Assembly: GCA_030429765.1 (NCBI GenBank)
Contig: JAUIER010000003.1
Location: 80,402 to 144,401 of the forward strand
Source: a bacterium
GTDB lineage: Bacteria; Omnitrophota; Gorgyraeia; Zapsychrales; Zapsychraceae
DNA length: 64,000 nt
Reading direction: 5' to 3'
In this document: positions 48,950-64,000 of the stretch, one piece after another
How the letters are laid out: every line of letters begins with the position of its first letter
How positions within the stretch are numbered: the first letter of the stretch is position 1
The notes under the pieces: generated by a model
Databases searched by the model: none
What the model was told of the DNA's origin: nothing
What the model saw: only the letters and a program-made list of their open reading frames with translations
Translations under genes and position numbers: made by a program

Positions 48950-49010
48950 TCGAGATTCATAAGGCATTCGATACCAGTCATTTACGCTTTAAATTGCTGT
49001 TTGTAATAAA

Positions 49011-49038
49011 TTGTACTATTTGAGATTTGTGCTATAAT
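49011..49038 (+). promoter_or_regulatory. Candidate sigma70 promoter for rpmE
   Basis: TTGTAC, then 16 nt, then TGcTATAAT (extended -10), about 55 nt upstream of the rpmE ATG in the AT-rich rho-rpmE spacer. Confidence 0.45.
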
Positions 49039-49093
49039 TGACAGTCTTAACGACAGGAGTTTAACTAAGGTGTATTCATAACCGAGGAGTAAT

Positions 49094-49297
49094 TTGATGA
49101 AAGCTGACATTCATCCTGAATATGTTGAAACGACGATTAATTGTGTTTGCGGGGCCTCGATTAAAACACGTTCCACGGTACAAAATATCCGTGTAGAGAT
49201 TTGTTCGAAGTGTCATCCATTTTTCACTGGTGAGAAGAAATTCGTTGATACCACCGGTCGAATCGAACGCTTTAAGAATCGTTACAAGAAAAATTAA
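49094..49297 (+). CDS. rpmE: 50S ribosomal protein L31
   Basis: [28 protein letters not shown]...[10 protein letters not shown]... Confidence 0.92.
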
Positions 49298-49309
49298 GAA
49301 TTTCCTTAT

Positions 49310-49329
49310 GGGCCGCATTATTGCGGCCC
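49310..49329 (+). terminator. GC-rich hairpin downstream of rpmE (possible partial terminator/attenuator; no U-tract)
   Basis: GGGCCGCA-ttat-TGCGGCCC, a perfect 8-bp stem. Confidence 0.3.
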
Positions 49330-49345
49330 AAAGTGTGTATAGACC

Positions 49346-50410
49346 ATGAAGCTAGAGAAATACGAGAAACTACAGGAGCGTTTTAAAGAGCTTGAGGGTC
49401 TGCTTGCCGATCAGAATATCATCTCCGATCAAAGTCAATATCAAAAGCTAGCCAAAGAATATTCCGACATCACGCCGGTGGTCAACCTGTTCGGCGAGTA
49501 TCAGGATGTCGTGCATCAAATTGATGATTTGAAGAAGCTGCTGTCTGAAAAGCCCGACAAGGAATTTGTCGAGTTGGCCGAGGCCGAGCTGTCTGAGCTT
49601 AACGAGAAGGTCGGTCAGCTGGAAGAGGAGCTGGACGATCTCACCAATCCCAAAAAGCAGGGGCAGAATCGCAATCTGATCTTCGAGATCCGGGCGGGGA
49701 CCGGCGGTGAGGAGGCAAGCCTGTTTGCCTCGGATCTGTTCCGGATGTACTCCAAATATTGCGACAAGAAAGGCTGGGTCCTCGAACCGATCAACTCCAA
49801 TCCGTCTGAAACCGGCGGGTTCAAGGAAATTATTTTCAGTATCAGTGGCGACGGCGCGGAAAAACATTTAAAATGGGAAAGTGGCGCGCACCGGGTTCAG
49901 CGTGTTCCCGCCACCGAGGCGTCCGGGCGGATCCACACTTCTGCCGCGACGGTCGCGGTGCTGTTTGAGGCCGAAGACGTTGAGCTTGAGATCGATCCCA
50001 ATGATTTGAAAATAGATATCTTTCGTTCGTCGGGCCCGGGCGGTCAGAGTGTGAATACCACTGATTCGGCGGTTCGCATCACTCATTTACCGACGAATAC
50101 GGTTGTCATCTGTCAGGACGAACGCTCACAGCTAAAAAACAAATATAAGGCGATGCGGGTTTTGAAGGCGCGGATCCTCGACAAGATGAAACGGGACAGC
50201 ATGGAGCAGGAATCGGCCGACCGCAAGCTCAAGGTCGGCAGCGGCGACCGCAGCGAGAAGATCCGCACATATAATTTTCCGGACCGGCGCGTCACCGATC
50301 ATCGCATCGGGTTTACGTCCCACAAACTGCAGTATATCCTGGACGGTGATATGGACGAATTAACCGAGGCCCTGATTCAGGCCGAGCATGAGGACAATCT
50401 CAATGAATGA
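49346..50410 (+). CDS. prfA: Peptide chain release factor 1
   Basis: ...RVPATEASGRIHTS... (PxT = PAT, RF1-type) and ...SSGPGGQSVNTTDSAVRITHLPT... (GGQ). Confidence 0.92.
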   Translation: MKLEKYEKLQERFKELEGLLADQNIISDQSQYQKLAKEYSDITPVVNLFGEYQDVVHQIDDLKKLLSEKPDKEFVELAEAELSELNEKVGQLEEELDDLTNPKKQGQNRNLIFEIRAGTGGEEASLFASDLFRMYSKYCDKKGWVLEPINSNPSETGGFKEIIFSISGDGAEKHLKWESGAHRVQRVPATEASGRIHTSAATVAVLFEAEDVELEIDPNDLKIDIFRSSGPGGQSVNTTDSAVRITHLPTNTVVICQDERSQLKNKYKAMRVLKARILDKMKRDSMEQESADRKLKVGSGDRSEKIRTYNFPDRRVTDHRIGFTSHKLQYILDGDMDELTEALIQAEHEDNLNE

Positions 50411-51221
50411 ACGTGAACAAATGCTGACCTCCGTACTGAATTGCCGGCGCGTTGATCTGTATGTGGATCGCAAGGAATTGAACCCGGTCCAGCAGAAACA
50501 ATATCGTCAGATGCTCGACCGCCGCGCTCAAGGCGAACCGCTGCAGTACATCATCGGTCATTGTGAATTTCTGAACACCAAATTATTTGTCAACAAACAT
50601 GTGTTGATCCCGCGGCCGGAAACAGAATTACTCGTCGAGATGGCGGTTGAAAAGGCGCGGATGATGCCGAACCGACCGGTACGGATCCTGGATCTGGGGA
50701 CCGGGTCCGGTAATATCGCGATCGCGTTGGCCAAACGGGTGCATGATTGTCATGTTGTCTCAGTCGATATTTCCCGCGAGGCGATCATGGTGGCCACGGA
50801 GAATGCCCGCAAAAATTTTGTGGCGGACAAGACCACCTTTGTATGGTGCGATATGTTCCGCTTTTTATCTATCGACGAGGAATTGGGCCGCAAATTTGAT
50901 ATGATTATTTCCAACCCGCCGTACATCAAGGCGGGGGATATTGACAATCTGCCGAATGACGTTCAGCGTGAACCGCACATCGCGCTCAACGGCGGACAGG
51001 ACGGATTGATGTTTTACCGCGAGATTCTAAAACGCGCGCATCATTTTTTACGCGAGGAAGGGTGTATTTTATTTGAGATTGGTGAGGATCAGGCGCAGGA
51101 TATTACGCAAATATTTGAGCAGTACCCGTATTTCCGGAACACCTTTGTGTTCAGGGATTACGCGGACCGCGACCGCTTTATGTGTTCCCAGCTCTCGGCA
51201 TTGAGCGCTGTCGTCAACTAA
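50388..51221 (+). CDS. prmC: Release-factor glutamine N5-methyltransferase
   Basis: ...ILDLGTGSGNIAIALA... (motif I) and ...IISNPPYI... (NPPY). Start may be the ATG at 50406 (MNEREQML). Overlaps the prfA end. Confidence 0.85.
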   Translation: MRTISMNEREQMLTSVLNCRRVDLYVDRKELNPVQQKQYRQMLDRRAQGEPLQYIIGHCEFLNTKLFVNKHVLIPRPETELLVEMAVEKARMMPNRPVRILDLGTGSGNIAIALAKRVHDCHVVSVDISREAIMVATENARKNFVADKTTFVWCDMFRFLSIDEELGRKFDMIISNPPYIKAGDIDNLPNDVQREPHIALNGGQDGLMFYREILKRAHHFLREEGCILFEIGEDQAQDITQIFEQYPYFRNTFVFRDYADRDRFMCSQLSALSAVVN

Positions 51222-51243
51222 CCGTTACGATCACACATCATTC

Positions 51244-52506
51244 ATGGAAAAACTCGTTATTGAAGGCGGACTCCCGCTTTCCGGTGAAGTCAAAATCAGT
51301 GGATCAAAGAACGCCGCGCTGCCGATTCTCGCAGCCAGTCTTTTGACCGACGAACCCGTCATCCTCCGTAATGTCCCGATTCTGCGCGATACGACGACGA
51401 TGATCAAGCTGCTCAAGTCATTGGGTAAGATCGTTGAGATCGACGGAGACCGCGTCAAGATCACCAGCAACGGCAAGACACGTCACGTGGCGGAATACAA
51501 ACTGGTTTCGACGATGCGCGGTTCGTTTTGTGTACTCGGACCGTTGTTGGCCAAGCTCGGCAAGGCCAAGGTGTCATTGCCCGGCGGGTGTGTGATTGGA
51601 ATCCGTCCGGTCGATCTTCACCTTAAAGGAATAAAGGCGTTGGGCGCCAAGATTCAGATCGACGGCGGATATGTGATTTCCCGCGCCAAGAAGCTCAAGG
51701 GAACGCATATCTATCTCGGCGGAGTGTTTGGATCGTCCGTACTCGCGACGGCGAATGTGCTGATGGCGGCGGTGCTGGCGGAAGGCGAGACCGTGATCGA
51801 GTCGGCGGCGTGTGAACCCGAGATTGAAGATTTGAGCAATATGCTCAGGGCCATGGGCGCGCGTATTCGCGGCGTGGGCTCGCCGCGCTTGACGATTACC
51901 GGCGTAAAACGTTTACGCGGTGTTTCTTATCGCGTCATTCCTGATCGTATTGAAGCGGGAACTTATATTTTGATTGGAGCCGCAACGCGCAGCGATATCA
52001 AACTGCGCGGCGCAGATATCACCCATTTAATGGCGCTGACGGACAAGCTCAAGGAAGTCGGGGTCAAGGTCACGGCCAAGCGCGATGTCGTGAAGGTCAA
52101 ATGTAAAAAGAATTACAACCCGGTGAGTATCACGACGTATCCGTATCCGGGATTTCCGACGGATCTGCAGGCGCAGTTTATGGCGTTGATGACGATTGTC
52201 GAAGGCGTGAGCGTGATCACGGATAAAGTTTATCCGGACCGCTTTATTCACATCGCGGAATTGAATCGCATGGGCGCTAACATCCGCCGCGAAGGGATCA
52301 ACGCGATTGTGCAGGGAGTCAAAAAACTCAAAGGCGCGCAGGTGATGGCGTCGGATCTGCGGGCCTCGGCGGCGCTGGTAATCGCGGGCTTAGCGGCCAA
52401 AGGCCGGACCGAGATTCATCGGATTTACCATTTGGAACGGGGTTACGAATTATTGGATAAGAAATTGACGGCGTTGGGCGCGAAGGTTTGGCGGGAACGG
52501 GAATAG
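51244..52506 (+). CDS. murA: UDP-N-acetylglucosamine 1-carboxyvinyltransferase
   Basis: MEKLVIEGGLPLSGEVKISGSKNAALPILAASLL...LPGGCVIGIRPVDLH... Confidence 0.92.
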   Translation: MEKLVIEGGLPLSGEVKISGSKNAALPILAASLLTDEPVILRNVPILRDTTTMIKLLKSLGKIVEIDGDRVKITSNGKTRHVAEYKLVSTMRGSFCVLGPLLAKLGKAKVSLPGGCVIGIRPVDLHLKGIKALGAKIQIDGGYVISRAKKLKGTHIYLGGVFGSSVLATANVLMAAVLAEGETVIESAACEPEIEDLSNMLRAMGARIRGVGSPRLTITGVKRLRGVSYRVIPDRIEAGTYILIGAATRSDIKLRGADITHLMALTDKLKEVGVKVTAKRDVVKVKCKKNYNPVSITTYPYPGFPTDLQAQFMALMTIVEGVSVITDKVYPDRFIHIAELNRMGANIRREGINAIVQGVKKLKGAQVMASDLRASAALVIAGLAAKGRTEIHRIYHLERGYELLDKKLTALGAKVWRERE

Positions 52507-52527
52507 CGACGAGATAGTGGAGCGCAT

Positions 52528-53091
52528 ATGATCTTAATGATAGACAACTACGATTCATTCACCTACAACCTGGTGCAGTATTTCGGTGAGCTGGGCGCGA
52601 ATCTCAAGGTGTACCGTAATGATATGATTTCGATTGAGGACATCCGCCGGATGCGGCCCAAAAAGATTGTGGTGTCGCCCGGGCCGAGTAATCCGGACCA
52701 TGCCGGGATTTCATTGGACGTCATCGACACGTTTAAAGGCAAGATTCCGATCCTCGGGGTATGTCTCGGACATCAATGTATGGGGCAGGCCTTCGGCGGC
52801 AAGATCATCCGGGCCAAAAAATTGATGCACGGTAAAACTTCAAAAATTAAACACGACGGCCAAGATTTATTCAAAGGCCTGGACAATCCGTTTGAAGCCA
52901 CGCGGTACCATTCGCTGGTGATCGAGCGCAAAAGCTGTCCCAAGTGTTTTGAGATTACGGCCTCGAGTGAAGACGGTGAGATTATGGGGATCCGTCATAA
53001 AGACTATCCGATGTGGGGCGTACAGTTTCATCCCGAGTCGATTTTGACCAAGGCGGGCAAACCGCTCTTGGGTAATTTTCTCAAACTATAG
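52528..53091 (+). CDS. trpG: Anthranilate/aminodeoxychorismate synthase glutamine-amidotransferase component
   Basis: MILMIDNYDSFTYNLVQYFGELG...ILGVCLGHQCMGQAFGG... Confidence 0.85.
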   Translation: MILMIDNYDSFTYNLVQYFGELGANLKVYRNDMISIEDIRRMRPKKIVVSPGPSNPDHAGISLDVIDTFKGKIPILGVCLGHQCMGQAFGGKIIRAKKLMHGKTSKIKHDGQDLFKGLDNPFEATRYHSLVIERKSCPKCFEITASSEDGEIMGIRHKDYPMWGVQFHPESILTKAGKPLLGNFLKL

Positions 53092-53103
53092 GATGGGATC
53101 CAA

Positions 53104-54129
53104 ATGAGCCATACGATTCGTTCATACGTGGACAAGATCCACAATCATGAGAATTTGACGCAGGACGAGATCGAAGTTGTCATGCAGGACATCATGTCCG
53201 GCGAGTCCAACCGCGAAGATATTGCCAGTTTTTTGTTGGCGCTGCGCGAGAAAGGCCCGACGATCGATGAGATTACCGGGGCGGCCCGGATTATGCGCCG
53301 GCATCTGGTCGGCGTGAATACCGTACACAAAGATATTCTTGATACGTGCGGGACCGGCGGTGACAAGACCAATACGTTCAATATCTCGACGGTGACGGCC
53401 CTGGTGGTGGCCGGAGCGGGGGCGGTCGTGGCCAAGCACGGAAATCGGTCGGTGTCGAGTAAGTGCGGTTCGGCCGATATTCTCGAAGCGCTCGATGTCA
53501 ATCTGGATATGGATACCTCCCGTCTGAACGCGTGTCTGGACGAAGTCGGCATCGCTTTTCTGTTTGCGCAAAAACTGCATCCGGCGATGAAGAATGTCGC
53601 GCCTGTGCGTAAGGAATTGGGTGTCGAGACGATCTTTAATCTGCTTGGGCCGTTGACGAATCCGGCCAATGCCACGCATCAGATGATCGGTGTGTACGCG
53701 CGTAAATATGTCAAGCCGATGGTGCAGGTGTTGAAGAACCTGGGATCCAAACGGGCATTGGTTGTGCATGGCGCGGACGGACTGGATGAGATCACAACGA
53801 CCGACAAGACATTTATCTGTGAGTACAACGGCGAGGAGATTTTTTCGTACGATATCGATCCCGACGAATTAGGCATACCGTTCGCCAAGCCTGAAGATCT
53901 CAAAGGCGGTCATCTGGAAGACAATGTCAGAATTGTCCGCGAGATCCTCGACGGAGCGCCCGGACCGAAAAGGGATATCGTTCTGTTGAATTCGGCGTAC
54001 GCGTTGTATATCAGCGAGAAGGCGGCGAATATTGAAGATGGTTTACAGATGGCGCGTGATTCGATCGACAGTGGAAAGGCCAAGGCCAAGCTGGCACAAC
54101 TAAGGGATTTTACCCATGAGCGGACATGA
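53104..54129 (+). CDS. trpD: Anthranilate phosphoribosyltransferase
   Basis: ...[52 protein letters not shown]... Confidence 0.9.
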   Translation: [341 protein letters not shown]

Positions 54130-54907
54130 TTTTCTGCAGGAGATCGTCGAGTACAAAAAAGAATGCAACCGCTTAAAGGCGGAGTACTACACGGCGATTC
54201 GCAACAAGATTGATCTCTCCGAATACTGCCGTTACGGGGTCTTTGCCAAGTCGGTGGGACGCGAAGGGCAGGTTAATCTGATCGCTGAGATCAAGAAGGC
54301 CTCGCCGTCCAAAGGGGTGATCCGTGAGCCGTTTGATGTGCTCGAGATCGCCAAGACATACACCGAACACAAGGCGGCGGCCATCTCTGTTCTCACCGAA
54401 GACAAATATTTTTTAGGACGACCGGATTACGTCAAGAAGGTCAGCGAACAGTTTACGGTGCCGGTCCTGATGAAGGACTTTTTCATTCATGAAAACCAGA
54501 TCTACGAGGCGCTGGTCAAGGGGGCCAGTGCGATCCTGCTGATTTGCGCGATACTCTCCGATGAGCAGTTAAAGCAATTATTGTCGGTGGCGAACGCTTT
54601 GGACCTGGACTGTCTGGTCGAGACGCATGATGAGACCGAGGTCAAGCGGGCGATTGACGTCGGCGCCGAGATCATCGGGGTGAACAATCGCGATCTACAT
54701 ACATTTGAGGTGTCGATGCAGACGAGTCTGGATTTGATCCCCAAGATTCCCCGGGATCGAATCGCGGTCGCCGAGAGCGGGATCCGGACCAACGCGGACA
54801 TTCGGCAGCTCAAAGAGGTGGGGGCCAAGGCGGTTTTAATTGGAGAAACATTTATGCGCGCAGAGGACATCGGCGCCAAGGTTGACGAGATTATGTCAGG
54901 CGGCTAA
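54116..54907 (+). CDS. trpC: Indole-3-glycerol-phosphate synthase
   Basis: ...LIAEIKKASPSKGVI... and ...IIGVNNRDL... Confidence 0.9.
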   Translation: MSGHDFLQEIVEYKKECNRLKAEYYTAIRNKIDLSEYCRYGVFAKSVGREGQVNLIAEIKKASPSKGVIREPFDVLEIAKTYTEHKAAAISVLTEDKYFLGRPDYVKKVSEQFTVPVLMKDFFIHENQIYEALVKGASAILLICAILSDEQLKQLLSVANALDLDCLVETHDETEVKRAIDVGAEIIGVNNRDLHTFEVSMQTSLDLIPKIPRDRIAVAESGIRTNADIRQLKEVGAKAVLIGETFMRAEDIGAKVDEIMSGG

Positions 54908-54922
54908 CACGGAGGAAGAGGA

Positions 54923-55537
54923 ATGACGATGAAAGTTAAGATGTGTGGGATTACCAATCATGAAGACGCGCAGAAGGCGGTTTATTACGGGGCCTATGCC
55001 GTCGGATTTATTTTTCATAAAAAAAGTCCGCGCTACGTATCACCGAGTAAAGCGCGAAAATTAATCGAAGGATTGCCGCCGTTTATCGTGCCGGTCGGTG
55101 TCTTCGTTGATCTCAAGGAAAAGGCGGTGCGGGATATCTGCAAGTTCACCCGGATCAAGACGGTCCAGTTTCACGGTGATGAAAAGCCGATCTACTGCAA
55201 GCGCTTTTCCGATTACAAGATCATCAAGGCCTTTCGGGTCAATGACATGTTTGATTTTGTCGGCGTCAAGAAGTACAAGGTCGACGCCTATCTGTTTGAT
55301 ACCTACCAGGAAAATGTCCTTGGGGGGACGGGAAAGACGTTCAACTGGGACCTGCTCAAAGGGCATAAGTTTGATAAACCCGTCATTCTCTCCGGCGGAT
55401 TGACCTCATCCAATGTGGCCGAAGGGATCGCCGCGGTGGATCCGTACGCCGTGGATGTCTCCAGCGGCATCGAGAAGTCGCCGGGGATCAAGGATCCCCG
55501 CAAAATCCGGGCGTTCATGAAGGCCCTGGACGTCTAA
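54923..55537 (+). CDS. trpF: Phosphoribosylanthranilate isomerase
   Basis: MTMKVKMCGITNHEDAQKAVYYGAYAVGFIFHKKSPRYV... Confidence 0.88.
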   Translation: MTMKVKMCGITNHEDAQKAVYYGAYAVGFIFHKKSPRYVSPSKARKLIEGLPPFIVPVGVFVDLKEKAVRDICKFTRIKTVQFHGDEKPIYCKRFSDYKIIKAFRVNDMFDFVGVKKYKVDAYLFDTYQENVLGGTGKTFNWDLLKGHKFDKPVILSGGLTSSNVAEGIAAVDPYAVDVSSGIEKSPGIKDPRKIRAFMKALDV

Positions 55538-55659
55538 ATCCCCGCACACTATCTGTTTTGTATTGATCCGATGGATCGGTCCGTCGAGGTATCCCGGACT
55601 GTCCCGGACACATTTTTGAAGCATAGTTGAAAGCTACTCATTTGTAATGACTTACAGGC

Positions 55660-55687
55660 TTGTCCCCTGTGGATAACTATGTTATAT
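55660..55687 (+). promoter_or_regulatory. Candidate promoter positioned to start the ncRNA candidate
   Basis: TTGTCC (55660-55665), 16-nt spacer, TTATAT (55682-55687). The predicted +1 is about 55694-55696, exactly where the 12-nt closing-stem arm begins. Confidence 0.4.
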
Positions 55688-55694
55688 TTGAATT

Positions 55695-55927
55695 AAGCCG
55701 ATAAAGGTAAACCCGGGGAAACCCGGGGACTTTCGAGTCTTACCGACTTGGAACTGCGCGGTTATGAGGCGCGCGGACAAAACCAACAGACCTAAATTGT
55801 TAACGACTACGAGGCCCGTTCGGGCGTTCAGCGCCGGGGCACACAATCCAAGCAGAAGAGTCTAGGACAAGATGGTGGCTGGGTTGCCGAAGTGCGGTGA
55901 GGGAGACATCCTCATCTTTATCGGCTT
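55695..55927 (+). ncRNA. Structured non-coding RNA candidate of unknown class (about 233-nt core closed by a 12-bp helix)
   Basis: 5' AAGCCGATAAAG (55695-55706) is perfectly complementary to CTTTATCGGCTT (55916-55927). The interior is rich in local hairpins (CGCGG-ttatgagg-CGCGCG, GCCCG-ttc-GGGC, GGCG-ttcag-CGCC, TGAGG-gagacat-CCTCA) and carries a duplicated ACCCGGGGA. No ORF of meaningful length covers it. It is bracketed by a candidate promoter and an intrinsic terminator. Confidence 0.5.
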
Positions 55928-55946
55928 ATTTTTCTCTCTTACCCAT

Positions 55947-55978
55947 ACCGTAAAAACACCCGTTTTTGCGGTTTTTTT
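55947..55978 (+). terminator. Rho-independent terminator downstream of the ncRNA candidate
   Basis: CCGTAAAAAC-accc-GTTTTTGCGG stem followed by TTTTTTTGTG. Confidence 0.65.
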
Positions 55979-56105
55979 GTGTCTACGGTGTTGGTTCTGG
56001 TAGAATAGTAGGAATTAACTGCGCGGGGCTTCACGAACTTCCAATCCTGCAGCAGTTTTTCCAGTGTGATTAAGCAAGCAAAATTAAGAAATATTTCGAT
56101 TGTAA

Positions 56106-56492
56106 ATGACTAACAATTCAATATTTTCATTTCCTCCTGATTTTGAAGTGGAGTATAAATTTTTGACAGTGGACGAGGCCGGTAGAAAAACTGGAACTCC
56201 CTTTCAGGGTTACCGGAGCAATTGGCTATATGAAGGGGATGACCCAATTGCCGACGGCATTTATATGATTCATCCTGAATTTCTGGATGAAGACGGAAAA
56301 AGTTTTCAAAAGAATAGGAAGGTTCCTGCAAAAGGCCTGGCCAGAATGGTAGTAGTCAATCCAGCTAAGAGACCTTATCATCAAAAGAAAATAAAAGTTG
56401 GAACAAGAGGTTTTTTTGTCGAGGGAAATCGGAAAGTGGCAATGGCAACCGTAACGAAGGTGCTTGGTTTGCATACCAATAAAACAACTTAG
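56106..56492 (+). CDS. Hypothetical protein (128 aa) in AT-rich islet
   Basis: ORF MTNNSIFSFPPDFEVEYKFLTVDEAGRKTG... with no recognisable motif. Local AT-richness differs from the flanks. Confidence 0.4.
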   Translation: MTNNSIFSFPPDFEVEYKFLTVDEAGRKTGTPFQGYRSNWLYEGDDPIADGIYMIHPEFLDEDGKSFQKNRKVPAKGLARMVVVNPAKRPYHQKKIKVGTRGFFVEGNRKVAMATVTKVLGLHTNKTT

Positions 56493-56542
56493 TAGAAAAT
56501 TCTCATTCCATAACAGGGATAGGATTTTTCAAAGATAATTGA

Positions 56543-57247
56543 ATGACGTATATTAGAATTTTTGCCTTGGTGCTTAGCGTTATTTTAACGGCCGGGTGTG
56601 CTACCGTTGTTCGGGATCAATTACCGGCAGTCCAAAAATTTTCGACATCTGAGGAAGCTTTCAGCGTATACGTGCTGAATCATGGATGGCATACAGGACT
56701 GGTGATCAGGCGTTCTGATATCCCTGACCATCTTTGTCCCGAAAGTGAAGATTTTGCTAAGTATGAGTATCTCGAAATTGGATGGGGCGATCAAGGTTTT
56801 TACCAGGCTCAGAAAATCACTTTGGGTATTACTATCCGGGCGATCTTTTGGCCGTCCAAAAGCGTACTACATGTGGTGGGATTTAATGGGTCAGTTGAGG
56901 CATATTTTGAAACCAGTGATATTGTACGAGTTGATCTTTCGGAACAGGGATTTAACAAAATATGCATGTTTATTCATGAAACGTTCAAGAGGGAGCAGGT
57001 TGATCTACGAGCTTCGTCTATCGGACCGGGTTTGTACGGGGATAGTAAATTCTACAGAGCTCGCGGGAGATACTACTTTCCTAAAACGTGTAATGTTTGG
57101 ACCGCAAGGGCCCTACGTAAAGGTGGTTGTCCGATAACACCTATTTACGCTGTGACATCCGGCAATACGCTGAATCAGACCAAGAAGTTTGGAGTAATTG
57201 TTAGGGAGTTCCTAGAGTCGTATAAAGCTTCAGGTAGAAAAAAATAA
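56543..57247 (+). CDS. Lipoprotein of unknown function (DUF2459-like)
   Basis: Lipobox ...LTAGC; ...NHGWHTGLVI... motif; 234 aa; AT-rich codon usage like the neighbouring ORF. Confidence 0.5.
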   Translation: MTYIRIFALVLSVILTAGCATVVRDQLPAVQKFSTSEEAFSVYVLNHGWHTGLVIRRSDIPDHLCPESEDFAKYEYLEIGWGDQGFYQAQKITLGITIRAIFWPSKSVLHVVGFNGSVEAYFETSDIVRVDLSEQGFNKICMFIHETFKREQVDLRASSIGPGLYGDSKFYRARGRYYFPKTCNVWTARALRKGGCPITPIYAVTSGNTLNQTKKFGVIVREFLESYKASGRKK

Positions 57248-57398
57248 GTGGATGGTCGAAGTCTCTCCAATCTTGAAAGAATTGGTATCAGAAATCCCTA
57301 AAGTAAAGCAGGGCATAAGTTTAGGTCGTAATTCATTATATTAGCGAAGAGGCCTGTCCCTTTTCGGGGACTGTCCCCTTTGGGGGAGCCGTTCGGGC

Positions 57399-57427
57399 TT
57401 GCCTATAATACTAATATATCGTATAAT
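57399..57427 (+). promoter_or_regulatory. Candidate sigma70 promoter for the giant ORF
   Basis: TTGCCT (57399-57404), 17 nt, TATAAT (57422-57427), about 50 nt upstream of the ATG at 57478. Preceded by overlapping alternative hairpins (57354-57386). Confidence 0.45.
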
Positions 57428-57477
57428 TAGTGTATTACTGGTTCCCCACCGTAAGCTTTAGTTTCCACCCATAGTCT

Positions 57478-60400
57478 ATGTTGATTTCAATCAAACGGCA
57501 TTTCCGTCATCCGTTGTTTTGCGCGTTGGTGTCGATGCTGACATGTCAGTTATCATTTGCTGTCCCTGGCGTTGCGTCTACGCAAGCCTCGCAGGGAGTG
57601 GCTCTGCCTGAACCCGGCACGCTGGTGATGCCGAGCGCCGATTTTTATGCCCCGGTCCTCAAAGGGGTTCAAATCCATCCCGACCAGCCGTTTCATTTTG
57701 AATTTATTGTCGATCAGGGCGATCAGTCGATTTCCTTAAGCCAACTGGAGGCCGAGTCGTATCGCTTGATCAAATATTTTATGGCCGCCCTGGCCGTGCC
57801 TGAGCAGGACATGTGGGTGAACTTATCGCCCAATGATCATGATCGGGCGATCCCCGACAAATTCGCCCTGACCGCTATGGGACGTGATCTGCTCGCGCAG
57901 GATTATCTGCTCAAACAATTATCGGCGTCGATGATGTATCCCGAACATCGGCTTGGTGAAGATTTCTGGCAACGCGTGCGGCACTTGGCCCATCAACGCT
58001 TGGGCGTGACCGACATTCCCGTCAACACATTCAATAAAGTCTGGATCGTACCCGAACGGGCCGTGGTGTATCAAGACGGATATACCGCGTATGTGTCCGA
58101 AGGCCGGCTCAAGGTCATGCTGCAGTCGGACTATCAAGCCAGCGCATCCAGCCCGATGGGCGCGGGCAATCCCGACGATTCCACCGACCGGTTAGCCCAG
58201 GACATTTATCGTGAAGTGATTATTCCGGAACTGGAGCGAGAGGTGAATACCGGTCGACAGTTTGCCCGTTTGCGCCAGATCTATCATTCGTTGATTCTCG
58301 CGACGTGGTATCGCGAAGTCCTTGAGGACAGTTTGATCAATCAAGTGTATGCCGGACAGAATAAGATCCATGGCATTGAGATCGACGATCCCCGGGCCAA
58401 AGACGCGATCTATCAGCAATACATGGACGCGTTTCGCAAGGGCGTCTACAACTACATCCGCGAAGACTATGATCAATTGAAGGATCAGGTGATCCCGCGG
58501 CAGTACATGTCGGGCGGGATGCAGATCGTGCCGCGGATAGAGATTACCGACGACGCGCGCTCCGTCCGCACGCGCGGAGATCTGGCGATGGTCTCCACGC
58601 AACTGAATCTGCGCGGTGCCAACCGCACGATTGAGATCGCGGCGGATCTCGACGACAGTATCTTTGCCGGGATGCGAAAGAACGGCCGGCCCAAGGTTCA
58701 GTTAACGCATGCGGATCACGCCGAGCTCAAGGGATACCGTCCGGATGGAGAGACGGTCACACTTTTTACCTCACTACGTCAGCGGGTATACGGCCTGGAA
58801 ATTTCCGATGAGGGCGAACTCACGCACGTTTATCCTAACAATAAAAAAGACAAACCGGTGGCTTGGGCCTGGATTCGTGACGACGCCGGCCGGCGGACCG
58901 GAATTGTCGTCGGAGACAAGCGGACGCACGCGTCGCTGGGATACGGAACAAGTGCGGTCAAGATTAACGGGTGGATCGACACGCCGATTATAGCAAGTCA
59001 GCAGCGGCAGGACGCGGCCTTGATCCGCATCGGTCCACAGGCCCTGGGTAAACGACAACTCTTTGCGGTGTTGCCGCCGGATGCGGCCGGCGAAACATTG
59101 GCGGTGCGCTATGAAGACGGTTTTCCGACGGCAGTTCGTCTGAGAGACGGGACCGTTGTTCCTGTTGGTCTGATCCGGAATCAGTATAATCAGGTGATCA
59201 AAGCCACGAACGGTTCGGCCGGTTTTGTTAAGCCGGATCGTGAGACAGCCACCAGCTACGAAAATATCCGAACGGATGCAGAGGGCATAGCGCGTTTGGG
59301 ATTCCGTCTCGAGCGAGTGGCCGACGGGGCCGGCTGGGCCAGTCTCCTGGTTGACCAATCAGTGGTGATCGCTCATGATATTTTTGATCAGCCGCGTCAC
59401 CAAACCTACGGACACGTGATCCGCAATCACCATGATGTCATCATTGCCGCCGCGTGGCGGGAACCCGACCAAGACCAACGGGAGGTAAACCCCAAGCCGT
59501 TGATGATCGTTCGCGATCTCCAAACACACCGGCCGAAGTACTCGGCGGCACCAACCAAATTCAAAGACACCGGCGACGCGATCGTGACCGGACGTCGTTT
59601 ATCGAAACACGGCAAGATTTATATCGGCGGACATTCGCTGAGTTTGGGGGCGACGTATGCCGATGCGCCGGTGGAATTGCTATGGCTGCCCAGCCAGGGT
59701 TATCTGCTGGTCGATGTCTTAAGTGAACGTGATCGTGAGGCGTTTGTGTTTGACTTGAATCGTGACGAAACCGTCACCGCCGAACAGCTAACTCTCGTCG
59801 ACAAATACCTGTCTGAGCTTGGGCTGGAATGGTATCTGGATCCGGCAGAGAAGGCGTATCGTTATGATCTCATCAATGAGTTGATGTCGGATCCGTTGTT
59901 CGCACAGCTGAATTTAAGATTATTTTCAACGCATCCGGCGGATTTACAGACCATTCAGTCTCAGTTGACTGTGCGCCGTCACATGCCGGTCAGGATTTGG
60001 GATCAGGCCCTGGATATCGCCGCCCGACGGATCGATCAATATAAACGCGATTATCCCGATCAGGTCGTCAACGGCAAGATTCCGATGCGGATCAAGCAGT
60101 CGATCATTCGCGATGTGTCGGACGAGGCCTGGTTGATGATCAATGCCGAACGTCCGCTGACGGAGAGCCCATCGGCTCAAATCTTTGAATCGTCGTCAAA
60201 CGAAACCGATGCGGCCATGACCAGCGATGGACCCACGCGGGCTGATATCGAACGGCTGTTCAAGGCGATTCTGGAAATTTACCGGTCCTACGCCGACGGT
60301 GAATTGGAGGACTATCCCACGGCGATGCGCCGGCTGGAGGCATTGGCCGAGCAGACCGCGTCGAATCCGGTCCTGCAGAGTTTTGTCCATGACCGGAAGA

Positions 60401-63400
60401 ATCCCATCCACGTGATTGAGTTCGGACTGGATGGTCAGTTGGTGGCGCGCGATAAGCTCGCGCAGTCCCTTCAGGATGACATCCGCGATATGGAGCTGGC
60501 CCTGGCCGGACTTCGATCGCTCGACGACACCGACCCCGCCCCGGTGACGGATGCGTATCCGGCCGAGATCAAATATTTTGAGTTAATCAATAAAGGACGC
60601 GGTTCGACGGATTCAGATGCCGCGATGGCGGGTATCGATACTTTTGTGGCTGAGCGGATCACACAATTGCAGGACGCGGTGACGGAACGTGAACAGGTGA
60701 CACCCAACACGGTTCGGCATGTCGCGGGGCTTTGGCTAAAAGCCCTCATCCAGGAGTGGGATTACGGCCGGAACATCGTTCACACACGGGCCGAGGCCGT
60801 CGAGATAGGGGAACGCCTGAACCGGGCGTGGAAGGCCGCCGGGTTCGACAAGGTTCGTTCATGGCCGGCGCAGGTGATGCTCATGGGCTCTCTGCAGGTT
60901 TCGGAAGACAAGTACTTTCAATTTGAAGATATGCAGGAGGCCTTGATCGAACATGCCACGCGGGAGGAAAAGATCTTGGCTTACTGGACCAAGGCGGTGC
61001 GCTCTGTCAGTCATCTCAGATATTACGGCAATCATCCGGAAGATGAATTTGAGGATCCGCTCGTCGATCAAACCGTCATTCAGGATACGGCGCGCAAATA
61101 CATCACCTTGCTGCTGGAAGACGCGCCCGAGAAGGCCACTCAAGATCAGCTGTGGGGATTGATCGTTTTGCTCGATCCGTTCATCTATCATCCTGACTTT
61201 TTAATTGATCAGTGGGCCAAGCATGCCTATAAGCAACCCAACGATCATGTCATGACCGCCAAGGTCCTCGACATTCTGAAGGATCTCAACGCGGAACAGC
61301 GGCAGCGATTCCAACAACTCGCCCGACGGGCGTTTGCGATATCGGATGACGAATGGGCGGCGGCTGGATTCCGGTCGCCGTACACAGACTTTATCATCCA
61401 TACCTTTAATGAACGACTGGACCACATGATGACTCAGATGTCGATCAAGTCCTCGAGTGAGTTCAGCGGGGATCACGTGCAGCTGATGGCCCGGTCCGAA
61501 GAATTTTTCGACGCCCATGTGGGATGGTATGCCTTAACGCGCGATCCCAGGGCGGTGCGCGAGATGATGTTCTCCAATAAACGGCATGCCCGTTATCCGG
61601 AGGCCGGTTTTCTGGGGCTGCGTCAGGCCATCGTCAAACGGCGATTGTTCAAGGCGATGGAACAAGATCCGCGGCATTACTATCGACGGGTCTTCGCGCA
61701 TCCATTGCTGGCGGATTCACCTAACTGGGGATTTTTAAGTGAGTTGTTGAGCGACGAGGCGATGATGGCCGATCCCGATGATATGACCGAACAGTTCCGT
61801 CGACGAATTGATCTAGCCATTGCTCAGGTGGGTTATCCTGGAATATCTGTATCCGAACAGGCTGCTCAAGATTTGCTTGCTGACTATGAACAGGGTTTTG
61901 ACGTGACGGAACGGATTGCCATTCCACGGATCAGCGTCTGGCTGATGCGTCACCAGATTCCTGTGTTTCAGTCTTATGAAATGCTAGCGGCCATCCACGT
62001 CGCCGCCGACAAGTGGCGAGCCAATTTCAATCAGACAGTGGAGCTTGAGGTTGGTGCCTTGATGAGCTTTACGAATGTGGTGGGGCTACCGATGTTTGGA
62101 TTTGAAGGATCGTGGACAGATGCGGAAGTGCAGACCGTTCGACGGATTATGGGGTGGTTGGATGGGGAAAAAGTCTCTACATTGAAAGGGTTGCAAGCTC
62201 GATTGTTGACATCTTCGGTAACATTTAAAAAGCGCGGCAGGGGATTCAGAGGCATTGCGGAGATCATACAAGGGATCATGCCGGCCGGTCCCCGTATACC
62301 TGGCGATAGACGCACAAACGCGATTCAGCTCGTCGACATTGATACAAGCTGGTTTACAGGGAATATCACATTCCCGATGATTCAGATTCTCAAGGAATTA
62401 TTGCTGGATCGGACGCAGGACAAGGATGTCATTGATGAAGACTACTTTGACTCACGAATTGCGGTGTTGGCCAAGATACAAGAGTTGTTAGAGCGGCTTG
62501 TCCTTCGGGAGCAGTCATTAATTGAAAACTTTGCGACAGCCTATCGCGCGCAATTGCAGGAAGAGCGTAGAACGTTGTTGTATACATGGCTGACCATGAT
62601 GCGCGGTGACGAAGAAATTTTAGATCTGGAACCTGATGATTTGTCGCACAGATTTACACTTTCAACGGATGATGTTTTGAAGGTATTAAGAGATTACTCT
62701 GAAGAGATCGATGACCGAGATCACGCGATGAAAGCCGGTGAGGCGTTTGAGAACAATCCGTATCATGAACCGCATTTTGATCTGATTGACAATCTGGAAC
62801 TGGCCGAGCGGTCGAATATCGTGATGATCGGGGCGGCGGAAAATCCGCAGGCCGGTTTGGCCTTCGCGATGCGCGGACATCATGTCAGGTCCATCACCAA
62901 GGATATCAAGGGGCCGACCGTGGAGGCGGCGCTGCAGGAGTCACTTGAGGCCGATATTTCCGGTCGGGGCGGACGGTATGTCACCAATCGGGAGACCGAC
63001 TATCTGGATGTCGACATCGACGCCGAATCGGTGGATGTGTATGTGGTGCCGGCGGTGCTCGACGATCCGCGCACCGTGCAGCAGGATTTGATGCTGGATA
63101 AAATGCTGCGCGAATTGCGGCCGGGCGGTCATCTGGTGCTGTCGTTTATCATCAATGCGTCGGGATGGGAGCGCTATGTCGAGCGGTTCGCGGCGTCACG
63201 CGGGTTTGAACTGGAGAAGACGTATGATTATACCGTGTCGGACGCGGCGGTGATCTATCGCGTTGTGCCGGATGCGGCCAGACAGCTGGCCGCCATGGCG
63301 TCGGAGATCGGCGCGGCCAATGATGAGGCCATGCTGGCGTTCAGTGAGTTTGACAACAAGATCGGGATCGATCCATTTTCCGGTCGTTTATCGGTGCTGT

Positions 63401-64000
63401 CCGATGAGCCGGTGTTTGTGCCGGCGTTTGAGTTATGGGCGGTGCGTCACGGTGAGACCGCCGGTAATGTTCAGCGCATCTTTCAAGGGGCGACGGACAC
63501 GTCGATCAATCAGTTGAATCAACGCGGACGCGAGCAGGCCGCAGAAGCGGCGCGCCTGATGTTTGAACAGCTCGAGGCCAAACTCAGGGCCGGTGATCAC
63601 GTTGTTATATTGACCAGTGAGTTCGCGCGGGCGAAAGAGACGGCGCAGGCCTTTGTGGATTTTGTTGAGGCTCAATTGGGGGATGCATCGAACTTAACCA
63701 TCGTCGAAGATGCCGGGGTCAATGAGATTGATTTCGGCGAACTCAACAATCTGTCCGAACAGGATGAGTTAACGGATCGTCAGCGCACGTTTATCGATCA
63801 GTATCGGTATCAGAAAAACGCGCGCGCGAAACCGGCCGGCGGCGAAAGCTATCTGGAATTGACCCAGCGGGTCCACCGATGGCTCAAAGAATTGAATCAG
63901 CGCTACGCGGACCAAACCGTGGTGATGTTTGGTCACGGTACATTTTTATCGGCCGTTCGGATGTTGACGGGGGATACGTCGATGAACGACGCCAGCGGTC
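57478..64000 (+). CDS. Giant secreted multidomain protein, 5' partial (at least 2174 codons, continues past the window end). The C-terminal visible part has a degenerate SAM-methyltransferase-like Rossmann region and a histidine-phosphatase (PGM/SixA branch) domain
   Basis: Reading frame 57478+3n contains no stop codon to nt 64000, verified by reading codon by codon. An in-frame TAG at 57472-57474 lies immediately upstream of the ATG. N-terminus MLISIKRHFRHPLFCALVSMLTCQLSFAVPGVASTQA is a signal peptide. Residues ...NIVMIGAAENPQAGLAFAMRGHHVRSI... and ...LRPGGHLVLSFI... (about 62.8-63.15 kb) resemble class-I MTase motifs I and III. ...ELWAVRHGETAGN... (63.44 kb) and ...VVMFGHGTFLSAV... (63.93 kb) are the RHGE and HG catalytic motifs of histidine phosphatases. 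It is absent from the supplied ORF track because no stop occurs in the window. Confidence 0.8.
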   Translation, partial: MLISIKRHFRHPLFCALVSMLTCQLSFAVPGVASTQASQGVALPEPGTLVMPSADFYAPVLKGVQIHPDQPFHFEFIVDQGDQSISLSQLEAESYRLIKYFMAALAVPEQDMWVNLSPNDHDRAIPDKFALTAMGRDLLAQDYLLKQLSASMMYPEHRLGEDFWQRVRHLAHQRLGVTDIPVNTFNKVWIVPERAVVYQDGYTAYVSEGRLKVMLQSDYQASASSPMGAGNPDDSTDRLAQDIYREVIIPELEREVNTGRQFARLRQIYHSLILATWYREVLEDSLINQVYAGQNKIHGIEIDDPRAKDAIYQQYMDAFRKGVYNYIREDYDQLKDQVIPRQYMSGGMQIVPRIEITDDARSVRTRGDLAMVSTQLNLRGANRTIEIAADLDDSIFAGMRKNGRPKVQLTHADHAELKGYRPDGETVTLFTSLRQRVYGLEISDEGELTHVYPNNKKDKPVAWAWIRDDAGRRTGIVVGDKRTHASLGYGTSAVKINGWIDTPIIASQQRQDAALIRIGPQALGKRQLFAVLPPDAAGETLAVRYEDGFPTAVRLRDGTVVPVGLIRNQYNQVIKATNGSAGFVKPDRETATSYENIRTDAEGIARLGFRLERVADGAGWASLLVDQSVVIAHDIFDQPRHQTYGHVIRNHHDVIIAAAWREPDQDQREVNPKPLMIVRDLQTHRPKYSAAPTKFKDTGDAIVTGRRLSKHGKIYIGGHSLSLGATYADAPVELLWLPSQGYLLVDVLSERDREAFVFDLNRDETVTAEQLTLVDKYLSELGLEWYLDPAEKAYRYDLINELMSDPLFAQLNLRLFSTHPADLQTIQSQLTVRRHMPVRIWDQALDIAARRIDQYKRDYPDQVVNGKIPMRIKQSIIRDVSDEAWLMINAERPLTESPSAQIFESSSNETDAAMTSDGPTRADIERLFKAILEIYRSYADGELEDYPTAMRRLEALAEQTASNPVLQSFVHDRKNPIHVIEFGLDGQLVARDKLAQSLQDDIRDMELALAGLRSLDDTDPAPVTDAYPAEIKYFELINKGRGSTDSDAAMAGIDTFVAERITQLQDAVTEREQVTPNTVRHVAGLWLKALIQEWDYGRNIVHTRAEAVEIGERLNRAWKAAGFDKVRSWPAQVMLMGSLQVSEDKYFQFEDMQEALIEHATREEKILAYWTKAVRSVSHLRYYGNHPEDEFEDPLVDQTVIQDTARKYITLLLEDAPEKATQDQLWGLIVLLDPFIYHPDFLIDQWAKHAYKQPNDHVMTAKVLDILKDLNAEQRQRFQQLARRAFAISDDEWAAAGFRSPYTDFIIHTFNERLDHMMTQMSIKSSSEFSGDHVQLMARSEEFFDAHVGWYALTRDPRAVREMMFSNKRHARYPEAGFLGLRQAIVKRRLFKAMEQDPRHYYRRVFAHPLLADSPNWGFLSELLSDEAMMADPDDMTEQFRRRIDLAIAQVGYPGISVSEQAAQDLLADYEQGFDVTERIAIPRISVWLMRHQIPVFQSYEMLAAIHVAADKWRANFNQTVELEVGALMSFTNVVGLPMFGFEGSWTDAEVQTVRRIMGWLDGEKVSTLKGLQARLLTSSVTFKKRGRGFRGIAEIIQGIMPAGPRIPGDRRTNAIQLVDIDTSWFTGNITFPMIQILKELLLDRTQDKDVIDEDYFDSRIAVLAKIQELLERLVLREQSLIENFATAYRAQLQEERRTLLYTWLTMMRGDEEILDLEPDDLSHRFTLSTDDVLKVLRDYSEEIDDRDHAMKAGEAFENNPYHEPHFDLIDNLELAERSNIVMIGAAENPQAGLAFAMRGHHVRSITKDIKGPTVEAALQESLEADISGRGGRYVTNRETDYLDVDIDAESVDVYVVPAVLDDPRTVQQDLMLDKMLRELRPGGHLVLSFIINASGWERYVERFAASRGFELEKTYDYTVSDAAVIYRVVPDAARQLAAMASEIGAANDEAMLAFSEFDNKIGIDPFSGRLSVLSDEPVFVPAFELWAVRHGETAGNVQRIFQGATDTSINQLNQRGREQAAEAARLMFEQLEAKLRAGDHVVILTSEFARAKETAQAFVDFVEAQLGDASNLTIVEDAGVNEIDFGELNNLSEQDELTDRQRTFIDQYRYQKNARAKPAGGESYLELTQRVHRWLKELNQRYADQTVVMFGHGTFLSAVRMLTGDTSMNDASG

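Follow-up and report, generated by a model that had tools for sequence, protein, structure and literature searches.

In the 64-kb stretch of Omnitrophota DNA analysed here (the window), about 1.4 kb of foreign DNA carrying two unrelated passenger genes has probably been inserted between a riboswitch-like RNA, which follows trpF, and the promoter of a large gene. One passenger encodes a 128-aa protein and the other a DUF2459 lipoprotein. An earlier note on this DNA had taken the whole of positions 55538–57477 for an AT-rich, gene-poor islet of acquired or fast-evolving accessory DNA. That reading suits the part that contains the two ORFs; the limits given to the islet were wrong, because the ancestral part includes the RNA as well as the region of its promoter, which leaves an inserted part of only ∼1.4 kb.

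Composition and synteny of the locus

The compositional break is real. The GC content of 55538–57477 is 0.435, compared with 0.505 across the whole window, which makes it the 11th lowest of 6206 sliding windows of 1940 nt (the GC minimum is at 55611). With the 54 other ORFs of the window as reference (GC3 of 0.600 ± 0.047), GC3 was 0.349 in the 128-aa ORF (z = -5.4) and 0.404 in the DUF2459 ORF (z = -4.2). The sliding-window and codon-usage analyses that had been proposed as a check, run here on the window, set both the stretch and its two ORFs apart from the other genes. The long spacers that had been remarked upon measure 568, 50 and 230 nt; to call the stretch gene-poor was an overstatement, as ∼70% of it is occupied by the two ORFs and the structured RNA. 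The region of the RNA (55695–55985) has a GC content of 0.515, and the left ∼400 nt of the stretch are not AT-rich foreign DNA.

We compared the locus with its counterparts in relatives that are distant, at ∼70% amino-acid identity. In five Omnitrophota relatives belonging to three lineages (L009, L010, L018, L019 and L021), this structured RNA likewise comes next after trpF, and window positions 44914–55525 are collinear with L009 and L010. Judged by the identity of TrpD+C+F, there are three roughly equidistant lineages at ∼70%, with L021 at 63–67%, and the insert is absent from all five relatives. An orthologous large gene comes after the RNA in L009, L010, L018 and L019, where the distance from the end of the RNA to the start of the large gene is 129–136 nt, compared with 1538 nt in the window. 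Neither ORF was present at the syntenic locus of any of the five relatives, in which the flanks are conserved. The earlier note had asked whether trpF leads straight to the giant gene elsewhere; in the relatives the RNA intervenes, and the two ORFs are absent. The insert thus combines deviant composition and codon usage with absence from the syntenic locus of relatives. Other changes at this locus were also seen: L009 carries another insertion, L020 a replacement, and L021 is without the large gene.

The extra DNA lies within 55932–57398, with junction positions that are uncertain by tens of nucleotides. We estimate from these comparisons that the foreign part would be about 1.4 kb long, extending roughly from 55,932/55,986 to 57,350/57,398. 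The features of the locus are collected in Table 1.

Table 1. Features between trpF and the large gene, in window coordinates.
Feature	Position	Strand	Basis
Tandem TCCCGGAC repeats, 10 nt apart, with left GGACTGTCC copy	55592..55609	+	Alignment to L009/L010
Sigma-70-like promoter of the RNA (TTGTCC, 17-nt spacer, TATATT, with TG)	55660..55688	+	Consensus scan only
c-di-GMP-I (GEMM-I)-type riboswitch-like RNA, predicted; ancestral	55691..55931	+	Conservation, Rfam, covariation, folding
Intrinsic terminator, 11-bp stem then T7, directly 3' of the RNA	55947..55979	+	Terminator scan
Inserted AT-rich DNA, core	55986..57350	+	RNA-to-large-gene distance compared with relatives; GC3 z-scores
128-aa protein, EF-Tu-domain-3-like fold, probable orphan immunity gene	56106..56492	+	AlphaFold2, Foldseek, homologue loci
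DUF2459 lipoprotein (signal peptide, Cys19), permuted papain-like cysteine-hydrolase fold	56543..57247	+	PF09601
Two tandem GC hairpins from a 17-nt direct repeat, with right GGACTGTCC copy	57351..57384	+	Repeat search, positional comparison
Promoter (TTGCCT, 17-nt spacer, TATAAT) and leader (TTCCCCACCGTA) of the large gene, ancestral	57399..57477	+	Promoter scan, conservation

The conserved flanks of the insert

The RNA on the left of the insert is, as far as can be predicted from sequence and folding, of the c-di-GMP-I (GEMM-I) riboswitch type and ancestral to the locus. Its identity was recognised from the orthologues, not from the Rfam matches of the window itself. The L021 orthologue scores 61.5 bits against RF03167, above the gathering score of 59, and that of L018 scores 52.4 bits; L010 reaches 34.3 bits against RF01051 (threshold 35). 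The window copy scores 25.2 bits (gathering 59) and covers part of the model, the window as a whole gave no Rfam match at gathering thresholds, and a permissive search gave weak matches alone. Among these, we rejected a match to the ‘trpB motif’ (28.5 bits, E 0.48), judged to be mostly terminator, and one to U4, judged to be noise. By blastn the RNA is 76% identical to that of L009/L010 and 68% identical to that of L018/L019; an exact 22-mer from its conserved 3' block had no match in a metagenome scan. The folding z-score is -3.9. In the proposed structure 97.7% of cells pair, with compensatory changes in five pairs compared with 0–3 in slid controls, and all six sequences retain P2 (6 bp + GAAA) and P3 (10 bp), each helix having one compensatory pair.

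Several features are shared with c-di-GMP-I riboswitches (CL00126; RF01051/RF03167). P2 is a hairpin capped by a GAAA tetraloop, P3 is conserved with compensatory changes, the junction sequences (AAAGG..AAACC, GGGGAC, ACAAAAC and GGUUGCCGAAG) fit the consensus, the L021 orthologue passes the gathering score, and the RNA lies upstream of a gene for a large secreted protein. GEMM-I riboswitches are typically associated with such genes. Unlike those riboswitches, the P3 helix here bears a large inserted domain of 75–95 nt, P2 contains two extra hairpins in the window, L009 and L010 (in the window a 46-nt insertion in the P2 internal loop), and the RNA is closed by an invariant long-range helix of 11 bp (up to 16 nt), the distal strand of which pairs with the P1/J1-2 strand. 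Between RNA and gene there are also a terminator and a separate promoter, and the window copy scores just 25 bits. Whether the window copy binds c-di-GMP is uncertain, because its 46-nt insertion adjoins the junction.

Promoter hexamers similar to those upstream of the RNA were read by eye 5' of the RNA in L018 and L021. The terminator at the 3' side of the RNA differs in each relative; the one in the window is the ancestral terminator or, alternatively, the beginning of the insert. On the right, the hairpins listed in Table 1 occupy the position of the terminator of the RNA in L009 and L010. They are followed by the promoter of the large gene (10/12 matches in the promoter scan) and its leader, a block conserved in L009, L010, L018 and L019, and the large gene begins with an ATG at 57478.

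The 9-mer GGACTGTCC had been described as an inverted repeat near each edge of the islet. A motif search in the 64-kb window found exactly two copies (55596 and 57368), where 0.37 are expected by chance and where at least two copies occurred in 3 of 100 shuffles. The two copies do exist; they are not the edges of the insert, as the left one is upstream of the conserved promoter of the RNA, with 340 nt between it and the left junction. It is contained in the tandem TCCCGGAC repeats, which are located ∼55 nt upstream of this promoter and align with TATCCCGGACACACCCGGACA in L009 and L010. In these two relatives the element around the left copy is kept as TATCCCGGAC..CCCGGACA without the 9-mer, which is replaced by GGACACACC. 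The window has five TCCCGGAC sequences compared with 2.5 expected. By the alignment, this tandem element is ancestral and no boundary of the insert.

The two passenger genes

The 128-aa protein was modelled by AlphaFold2 with a pLDDT of 91.7, and the model has the fold of EF-Tu domain 3 (GTP_EFTU_D3, PF03143): in a Foldseek search of the PDB, all of the top 50 matches were to EF-Tu (E 1.7e-5, probability 1.0), with a TM-score of ∼0.55 over 113–118 columns. The likeness includes the β-barrel and two short end motifs that resemble FE.E.Y.L..EGGR and EG.R.V..G.V.KVLG. Unlike EF-Tu, the protein is a stand-alone chain without GTPase domain or domain 2, and has an extra helix at residues 86–95; sequence similarity is insignificant (phmmer E 2.7 against EF-Tu in the PDB, with no match to PF03143). 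Searches of Pfam (E ≤ 0.01), NCBIfam, PADLOC and PHROGs gave no match, nor did a comparison with phages.

This ORF had been called an orphan. It belongs to a family with 44 homologues in a first search and at least 489 cluster representatives in a profile search, the best homologue being 55% identical. In 9 of 61 informative loci (15%), an Rhs toxin gene is directly followed, after a gap of 2–41 nt, by that of a family member, and these toxins have one common C-terminal domain of ∼115 aa (L007, L022, L059, L060, L075, L080, L083, L088 and L090). In L083 the toxin is followed by two tandem family copies; the L022 toxin, beside the closest homologue, shows only weak relatedness to the other toxins (E 0.005, reached after iteration). 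Nothing in Pfam, NCBIfam or the PDB sequences matched the toxin domain. Other members of the family occur as integron cassettes that have attC sites, wedged inside operons, or on Leptospira plasmids, and in four of the five other genomes checked the family gene is AT-richer than the host locus. Ten longer, fused members contain no informative Pfam domains, and one longer member looks like a mis-called fusion to the N-terminus of UDP-glucose dehydrogenase.

From gene order alone, we infer that the family provides the cognate immunity protein of these Rhs toxins. The toxin is absent from the 64-kb window, and the window gene is thus most likely an orphan immunity gene, its putative role being suggested by the homologues that adjoin Rhs toxins. 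It resembles the orphan immunity genes of polymorphic (Rhs/CDI/T6SS) systems, including acquired interbacterial-defence clusters, in being small and compositionally foreign, in having homologues whose genes immediately follow Rhs C-terminal toxin domains, and in that most family copies lack a toxin and reside in integron cassettes, on plasmids or scattered over chromosomes. It differs from them in that both the immunity family and the toxin domain are missing from Pfam, NCBIfam and PADLOC, in its EF-Tu-domain-3-like fold, and in its Omnitrophota host with no toxin in 64 kb; neutralisation is putative. Since several polymorphic toxins, CdiA-CT(NC101), Tse6, TreTu and Rhs2-CT, use EF-Tu, the fold of the immunity candidate hints at an immunity mechanism in which a target or cofactor is mimicked. 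It is conceivable, although we regard it as doubtful, that the protein mimics EF-Tu domain 3 and confers immunity to a new Rhs toxin that docks on or modifies EF-Tu by decoying the binding surface, with the window copy perhaps under c-di-GMP control.

The assignment of the second ORF to a DUF2459-like lipoprotein was borne out by a PF09601 match of 137.8 bits (E 3.9e-40, cutoff 27); the narrower TIGR02117 equivalog was not reached (113.8 compared with 131). The protein has a papain-like core, in which Cys and His are conserved, and is probably an envelope-located cysteine hydrolase. Its sequence identity to permuted papain-like/NlpC-P60-related cysteine hydrolases (TseH, YiiX/DUF1105, PPPDE, LRAT-like) is ∼11%, and it differs from them in being a lipoprotein rather than a secreted effector. 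Identity to the nearest homologues does not exceed 57%; those that are named belong to other phyla, with no Omnitrophota among them. PHROGs gave one insignificant match (E 0.041) and PADLOC none. We considered a linked module of the two genes and rejected it, as DUF2459 was not adjacent in any of the five inspected loci of the 128-aa family (L002, L004, L007, L008 and L022), and L023, the nearest DUF2459 locus, lacks a gene of that family.

Origin of the insert and its significance

Insertion of foreign DNA had to be weighed against four other explanations. The pair might be functionally integrated: it would now be the first cargo of the c-di-GMP riboswitch transcript and would share its regulation with the large secreted protein, or help it. 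The insert does lie between riboswitch and large gene on the same strand, it encodes a secreted lipoprotein, and a promoter scan revealed no convincing promoter between 55985 and 56105. We nevertheless consider this unlikely, since a strong terminator follows the RNA, the large gene retains its own conserved promoter, orthologous large genes work without the pair in four relatives, and homologues of the two ORFs were never found together in the loci inspected elsewhere. The functional link to the giant protein that had been suggested earlier found no support; homologues of both ORFs also occur in unrelated contexts in other phyla. Alternatively, both genes could be ancestral and have been deleted in other lineages, low GC then reflecting weak expression or relaxed selection. 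With relatives ∼70% identical in TrpD+C+F, several independent losses are conceivable, and the locus is unstable, as the rearrangements in L009, L020 and L021 indicate. This is quite improbable all the same: at least three independent losses would be needed (one in each of the clades L009/L010 and L018/L019, and one in L021), the GC3 of 0.35–0.40 is 4–5 sd below every other gene, other short genes included, the named DUF2459 homologues are from outside the Omnitrophota, and the 128-aa family is AT-richer than its surroundings in four of the five other genomes checked.

The GGACTGTCC inverted repeats could also be taken for the termini of a small mobile element, for instance a miniature transposon, an integron cassette or the remnant of an IS. 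The 9-mer does occur exactly twice, and the 128-aa gene has homologues elsewhere that are true integron cassettes. We believe that there is very little chance of this. The left copy is outside the insert, on the far side of the conserved RNA, and L009/L010 lack the 9-mer. No attC-like site above the shuffled null was found anywhere in the window, in a test that recovered sites in L004, L046, L053 and six other homologue loci; there is no integrase or transposase ORF at the locus between trpF and the large gene, neither insert ORF being a recombinase, and no tRNA in the 64-kb window. The real junctions have no target-site duplication, no terminal inverted or direct repeats and no flanking repeats, and the insert DNA did not match plasmids. 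The earlier decision not to call the islet a mobile element was therefore sound. Least credible of all, we think, is a junction created artificially during metagenome assembly or binning, with ORFs from another organism, as their low GC would allow. The Logan contig L001 is 100% identical to the window over 46543–57379, so that this independent assembly contains the trp genes, the RNA and both ORFs together with 27 nt of the right flank, and both flanks of the insert are homologous to the contiguous locus of relatives. L001 ends at 57379, inside the right junction, which is compatible with an artefact and may leave room for strain heterogeneity there. The 128-aa ORF was not called by the Logan gene caller in L001, and the contig index holds no exact record of it.

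We thus favour the insertion of foreign DNA. The ancestral order would have been the trp genes ending in trpF, a promoter, the c-di-GMP-I-type RNA with its terminator, a second promoter and the gene for the large secreted protein. In this genome alone, ∼1.4 kb of low-GC foreign DNA would have entered between the RNA and the promoter of the large gene, likely by illegitimate or flank-guided recombination and not as a self-mobile element. Because no junction signature was found, the junctions are placed only to within tens of nucleotides. One passenger would be an orphan immunity gene that protects against the toxins of neighbours, and the other encodes a DUF2459 lipoprotein of the permuted papain-like (TseH/YiiX-like) type with a Cys/His site. 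Because no convincing promoter of their own was found, expression of both genes may rely on read-through from the riboswitch unit.

The insert itself is routine, a small gene transfer that brought two uncharacterised passengers into a variable intergenic hotspot, and the locus downstream of trpF would be a recombination hotspot in this lineage. The GEMM-I-type variant with large insertions offers a handle on the possible regulation of genes for large secreted proteins in an uncultured phylum, the Omnitrophota. The homologues of the 128-aa gene define an unannotated toxin–immunity pair, in which a ∼115-aa Rhs C-terminal domain is accompanied by an EF-Tu-domain-3-like immunity candidate.

Extent of the extra DNA after trpF

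Throughout the 64 kb window, which has 50.5% GC, every sizeable ORF lies on the plus strand. An earlier note had drawn an AT-rich islet of 1.9 kb between trpF, which ends at 55537 (PRAI domain PF00697, E 1.6e-44), and a downstream 'giant' gene. Its account of composition was correct: 55538–57477 has a GC content of 0.435 and ranks 11th lowest among 6206 sliding windows of 1940 nt, the minimum starting at 55611. The unit so drawn is nevertheless heterogeneous, as the RNA-containing part, 55695–55985, is host-typical at 51.5% GC. The GC drop is mostly that of two ORFs, whose GC3 lies far below that of the 54 other ORFs of the window (mean 0.600 ± 0.047; Table).

A TrpF-based scan with one genome per species gave two Candidatus Omnitrophota MAGs, L009 and L010 (86–87% TrpF identity), and protein searches with contig look-ups gave four further relatives (L018 and L019, 81–82%; L020, 79%; L021, 74%). 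L009 and L010 are collinear with the window over 44914–55525. After trpF, L010, L018 and L019 have a spacer of 440–605 nt and then an orthologous gene of 1725–1933 aa; L009 has the L010-like arrangement plus its own low-GC insertion between trpF and the RNA. The order in these relatives is thus trpF, RNA and large gene, without the two ORFs, homologues of which are absent from the post-trpF locus in all six relatives. The distance from the end of the RNA to the start of the large gene is 1538 nt in the window compared with 129–136 nt in relatives, and approximately 1.4 kb of DNA is therefore extra. It lies within 55,932–57,398, with a safe core of 55,986–57,350; beyond it, the −35/−10 promoter, the TTCCCCACCGTA leader and the large-gene start (57399–57480) align in all four relatives carrying the gene. 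The islet accordingly shrinks from 1.9 to ∼1.4 kb, as both RNA and repeats are ancestral.

The 9-mer GGACTGTCC, proposed as an inverted repeat near the islet edges, occurs exactly twice in the window, at 55596 and 57368 (chance expectation 0.37), a count reached in 3 of 100 shuffles. The left copy arises from two TCCCGGAC repeats spaced 10 nt apart (55592–55609), well outside the insert and ∼55 nt before the RNA promoter; in L009 and L010 the element is conserved as TATCCCGGACACACCCGGACA and lacks the 9-mer. The right copy lies within two tandem GC hairpins (57351–57384), at the position of the RNA terminator in relatives. The 9-mers are therefore not the insert termini. At the real junctions, terminal repeats, target duplications and attC-like sites are all absent, and no tRNA was found in the 64 kb window. 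The view that this is acquired accessory DNA and not a classical mobile element holds, given the GC3 outliers and ORFs without counterpart at the relatives' locus.

An assembly chimera is argued against by an independent Logan contig, L001, which is 100% identical across 46543–57379. This contig stops at 57379, after 10.8 kb of identity, within the tandem GC hairpins of the right junction; this may be due to a mixture of strains with and without the insert or to a break in the assembly graph. Loss from the relatives would have to have occurred three times: in TrpD+C+F the window, the L009/L010 clade and the L018/L019/L020 clade stand ∼70% apart mutually, with L021 at 63–67%. By parsimony a single gain in the window lineage is preferred, and the unameliorated GC3 is concordant with such a gain. 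In this lineage the post-trpF region is a hotspot of recombination, with differing content in L009, L020 and L021 (Table).

Features of the window and of comparison loci
Feature	Location	Strand	Details
Riboswitch-like RNA	window 55695–55940		
Two extra hairpins in P2 internal loop, beside ligand-binding junction	window 55737–55782		Window, L009, L010
128-aa EF-Tu-domain-3-like ORF	window 56106–56492	plus	GC3 0.349 (z = −5.4)
DUF2459 lipoprotein ORF	window 56543–57247	plus	GC3 0.404 (z = −4.2)
Large gene	window 57478–63999	plus	
L009 insertion, 527-aa membrane protein ORF, C-terminal TPR repeats	L009:10796–12379	minus	GC3 0.53 versus flanks 0.72–0.79
L021, spacer but no large gene; RNA retained, then 99-aa ORF and M20 peptidase	L021:10631–12577		
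L020, two small ORFs and unrelated WD40 beta-propeller gene	L020:10640–20639		Propeller gene >6139 aa; replace riboswitch and orthologous large gene
Toxin domain, ∼115 aa, Rhs C-terminus (alignment A3)	L007:7640–7984		Also L088, L059, L060, L075, L080, L083
128-aa family members inside standard operons, gaps 2–40 nt	L002:8001–8387; L008:2597–2986		pntA/pntB; moxR/DUF58

The riboswitch-like RNA

The ncRNA candidate had been counted as islet content, yet by blastn it is 76% identical to its counterparts after trpF in L009/L010 and 68% in L018/L019, and it aligns in blocks with L021. This conservation indicates that the RNA is ancestral and not part of the insert. It is tied to the post-trpF position, because L021 retains it without the large gene. 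At gathering thresholds Rfam gave zero matches in the window, and under permissive settings the match to c-di-GMP-I-GGC was only partial, with 25 bits. The orthologues matched RF03167 at 61.5 bits in L021 (gathering 59; E 4e-12) and 52.4 bits in L018, and RF01051 at 34.3 bits in L010 (gathering 35). Common to the six RNAs are a GAAA-tetraloop P2 hairpin, a 10-bp P3 helix, junction strings, a large conserved domain in the P3 loop and a 3′ hairpin, and in all six the P1/J1-2 strand pairs with an invariant distal helix of 11 bp. The two hairpins added inside P2 explain why the window copy scores low; the RNAs of L018, L019 and L021 are smaller forms with neither. The loop UUAUGAGG is common to the window and L009/L010 RNAs, but in different hairpins.

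In the proposed structure 97.7% of cells pair and five pairs are compensatory, versus 0–3 in slid controls; with n = 6 sequences, this covariation is supportive, not decisive. By consensus alignment, the three ligand-contacting positions of the Vc2 structure are presumably retained. A promoter-like site of its own precedes the RNA, and a terminator follows it in every genome. At 55896–55983 the riboswitch 3′ end and terminator overlap a weak hit of the 'trpB ncRNA motif' (RF04312, 28.5 bits, E 0.48), which may be coincidental. The site is where trpB would come after trpF in a classical trp operon, and L018 has a PALP (TrpB-like) gene ∼9 kb further downstream.

The two inserted genes and the large gene

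The second inserted ORF is, as suspected, a DUF2459-like lipoprotein (PF09601, 137.8 bits; below cutoff for TIGR02117), with a signal peptide ending ...LTAGC and invariant Cys19, H50, E78, H110 and C183. Its model (pLDDT 89.4) found no PDB match by Foldseek; a published survey also counts DUF2459 as papain-like (PMC10318531). Identity to the nearest homologues does not exceed 57%; the named homologues are from Rokubacteria, Nitrospiria, Tectomicrobia and Gammaproteobacteria.

The 128-aa ORF had been called an orphan, and searches of Pfam, NCBIfam, PADLOC and PHROGs gave no match to it. It does, however, have 44 homologues at 40–59% identity, and a profile search gave 489 cluster representatives; the family has twelve invariant columns. 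With its AlphaFold2 model (pLDDT 91.7), the best 50 Foldseek matches in PDB are all EF-Tu, over domain 3 (E 1.7e-5), and weak phmmer matches fall in the same region.

The closest homologue (L022, 55% identity) starts 2–14 nt, depending on the start codon chosen, after a 563-aa RHS-repeat/PT-TG protein. In Ca. Thiodiazotropha (L007) the gene ahead of the family member encodes a cadherin/Rhs protein of 4251 aa, in which a variable C-terminal domain comes after an Rhs core ending in DPSGH. We surveyed eighty metagenome loci by phmmer and jackhmmer with the C-terminal 115 aa of this protein. In L059, L060, L075, L080, L088 and L090 the ORF immediately preceding the family gene has this domain at its extreme C-terminus; L083 has the toxin followed by two family copies in tandem. 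Among the 61 loci with 400 nt or more of sequence upstream, 9 have the toxin there; that of L022 is only weakly related. The domain (consensus TVDLxRAVED.ELAS...KQFFHT.AEA..FG...GIGPIVTVP.GLLPAFN) has no match among Pfam, NCBIfam or PDB sequences, and the EF-Tu-domain-3-like gene always comes next after it.

Elsewhere, family members occur as integron cassettes, accompanied by clear attC sites and an intI gene, or lie on Leptospira plasmids beside an RHH–PIN pair. Those in L002 and L008 are markedly AT-richer than their hosts, and the family gene was AT-richer than the host locus in four of five loci checked. Such contexts bear the signature of a predicted family of polymorphic-toxin immunity proteins, many of whose copies are orphans. 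Because no A3-type toxin occurs in the 64 kb window, its copy would be such an orphan, a putative immunity gene. The two inserted genes are not a recurrent module, as their homologues have separate contexts at the loci inspected, including L023, the locus of the best DUF2459 homologue, where there is no EF-Tu-domain-3-like gene. Since binding or modification of EF-Tu has been described for several polymorphic toxins (PMC5737660; PMC9825190; bioRxiv 10.1101/2025.10.28.685041), mimicry of an EF-Tu surface is an attractive mechanism by which the predicted immunity protein might work.

The large gene encodes a signal peptide at its start and a histidine-phosphatase domain (residues 1986–2161). Its orthologues in relatives are of only 1725–2154 aa, so that it is large, not giant, and nothing supports the suggested functional tie to the insert. 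Both inserted genes may be expressed by read-through from the riboswitch unit. The feature as a whole is of a known kind. Likewise, the immunity family, the toxin paired with it and the riboswitch variant all belong to known kinds, as uncharacterised members.
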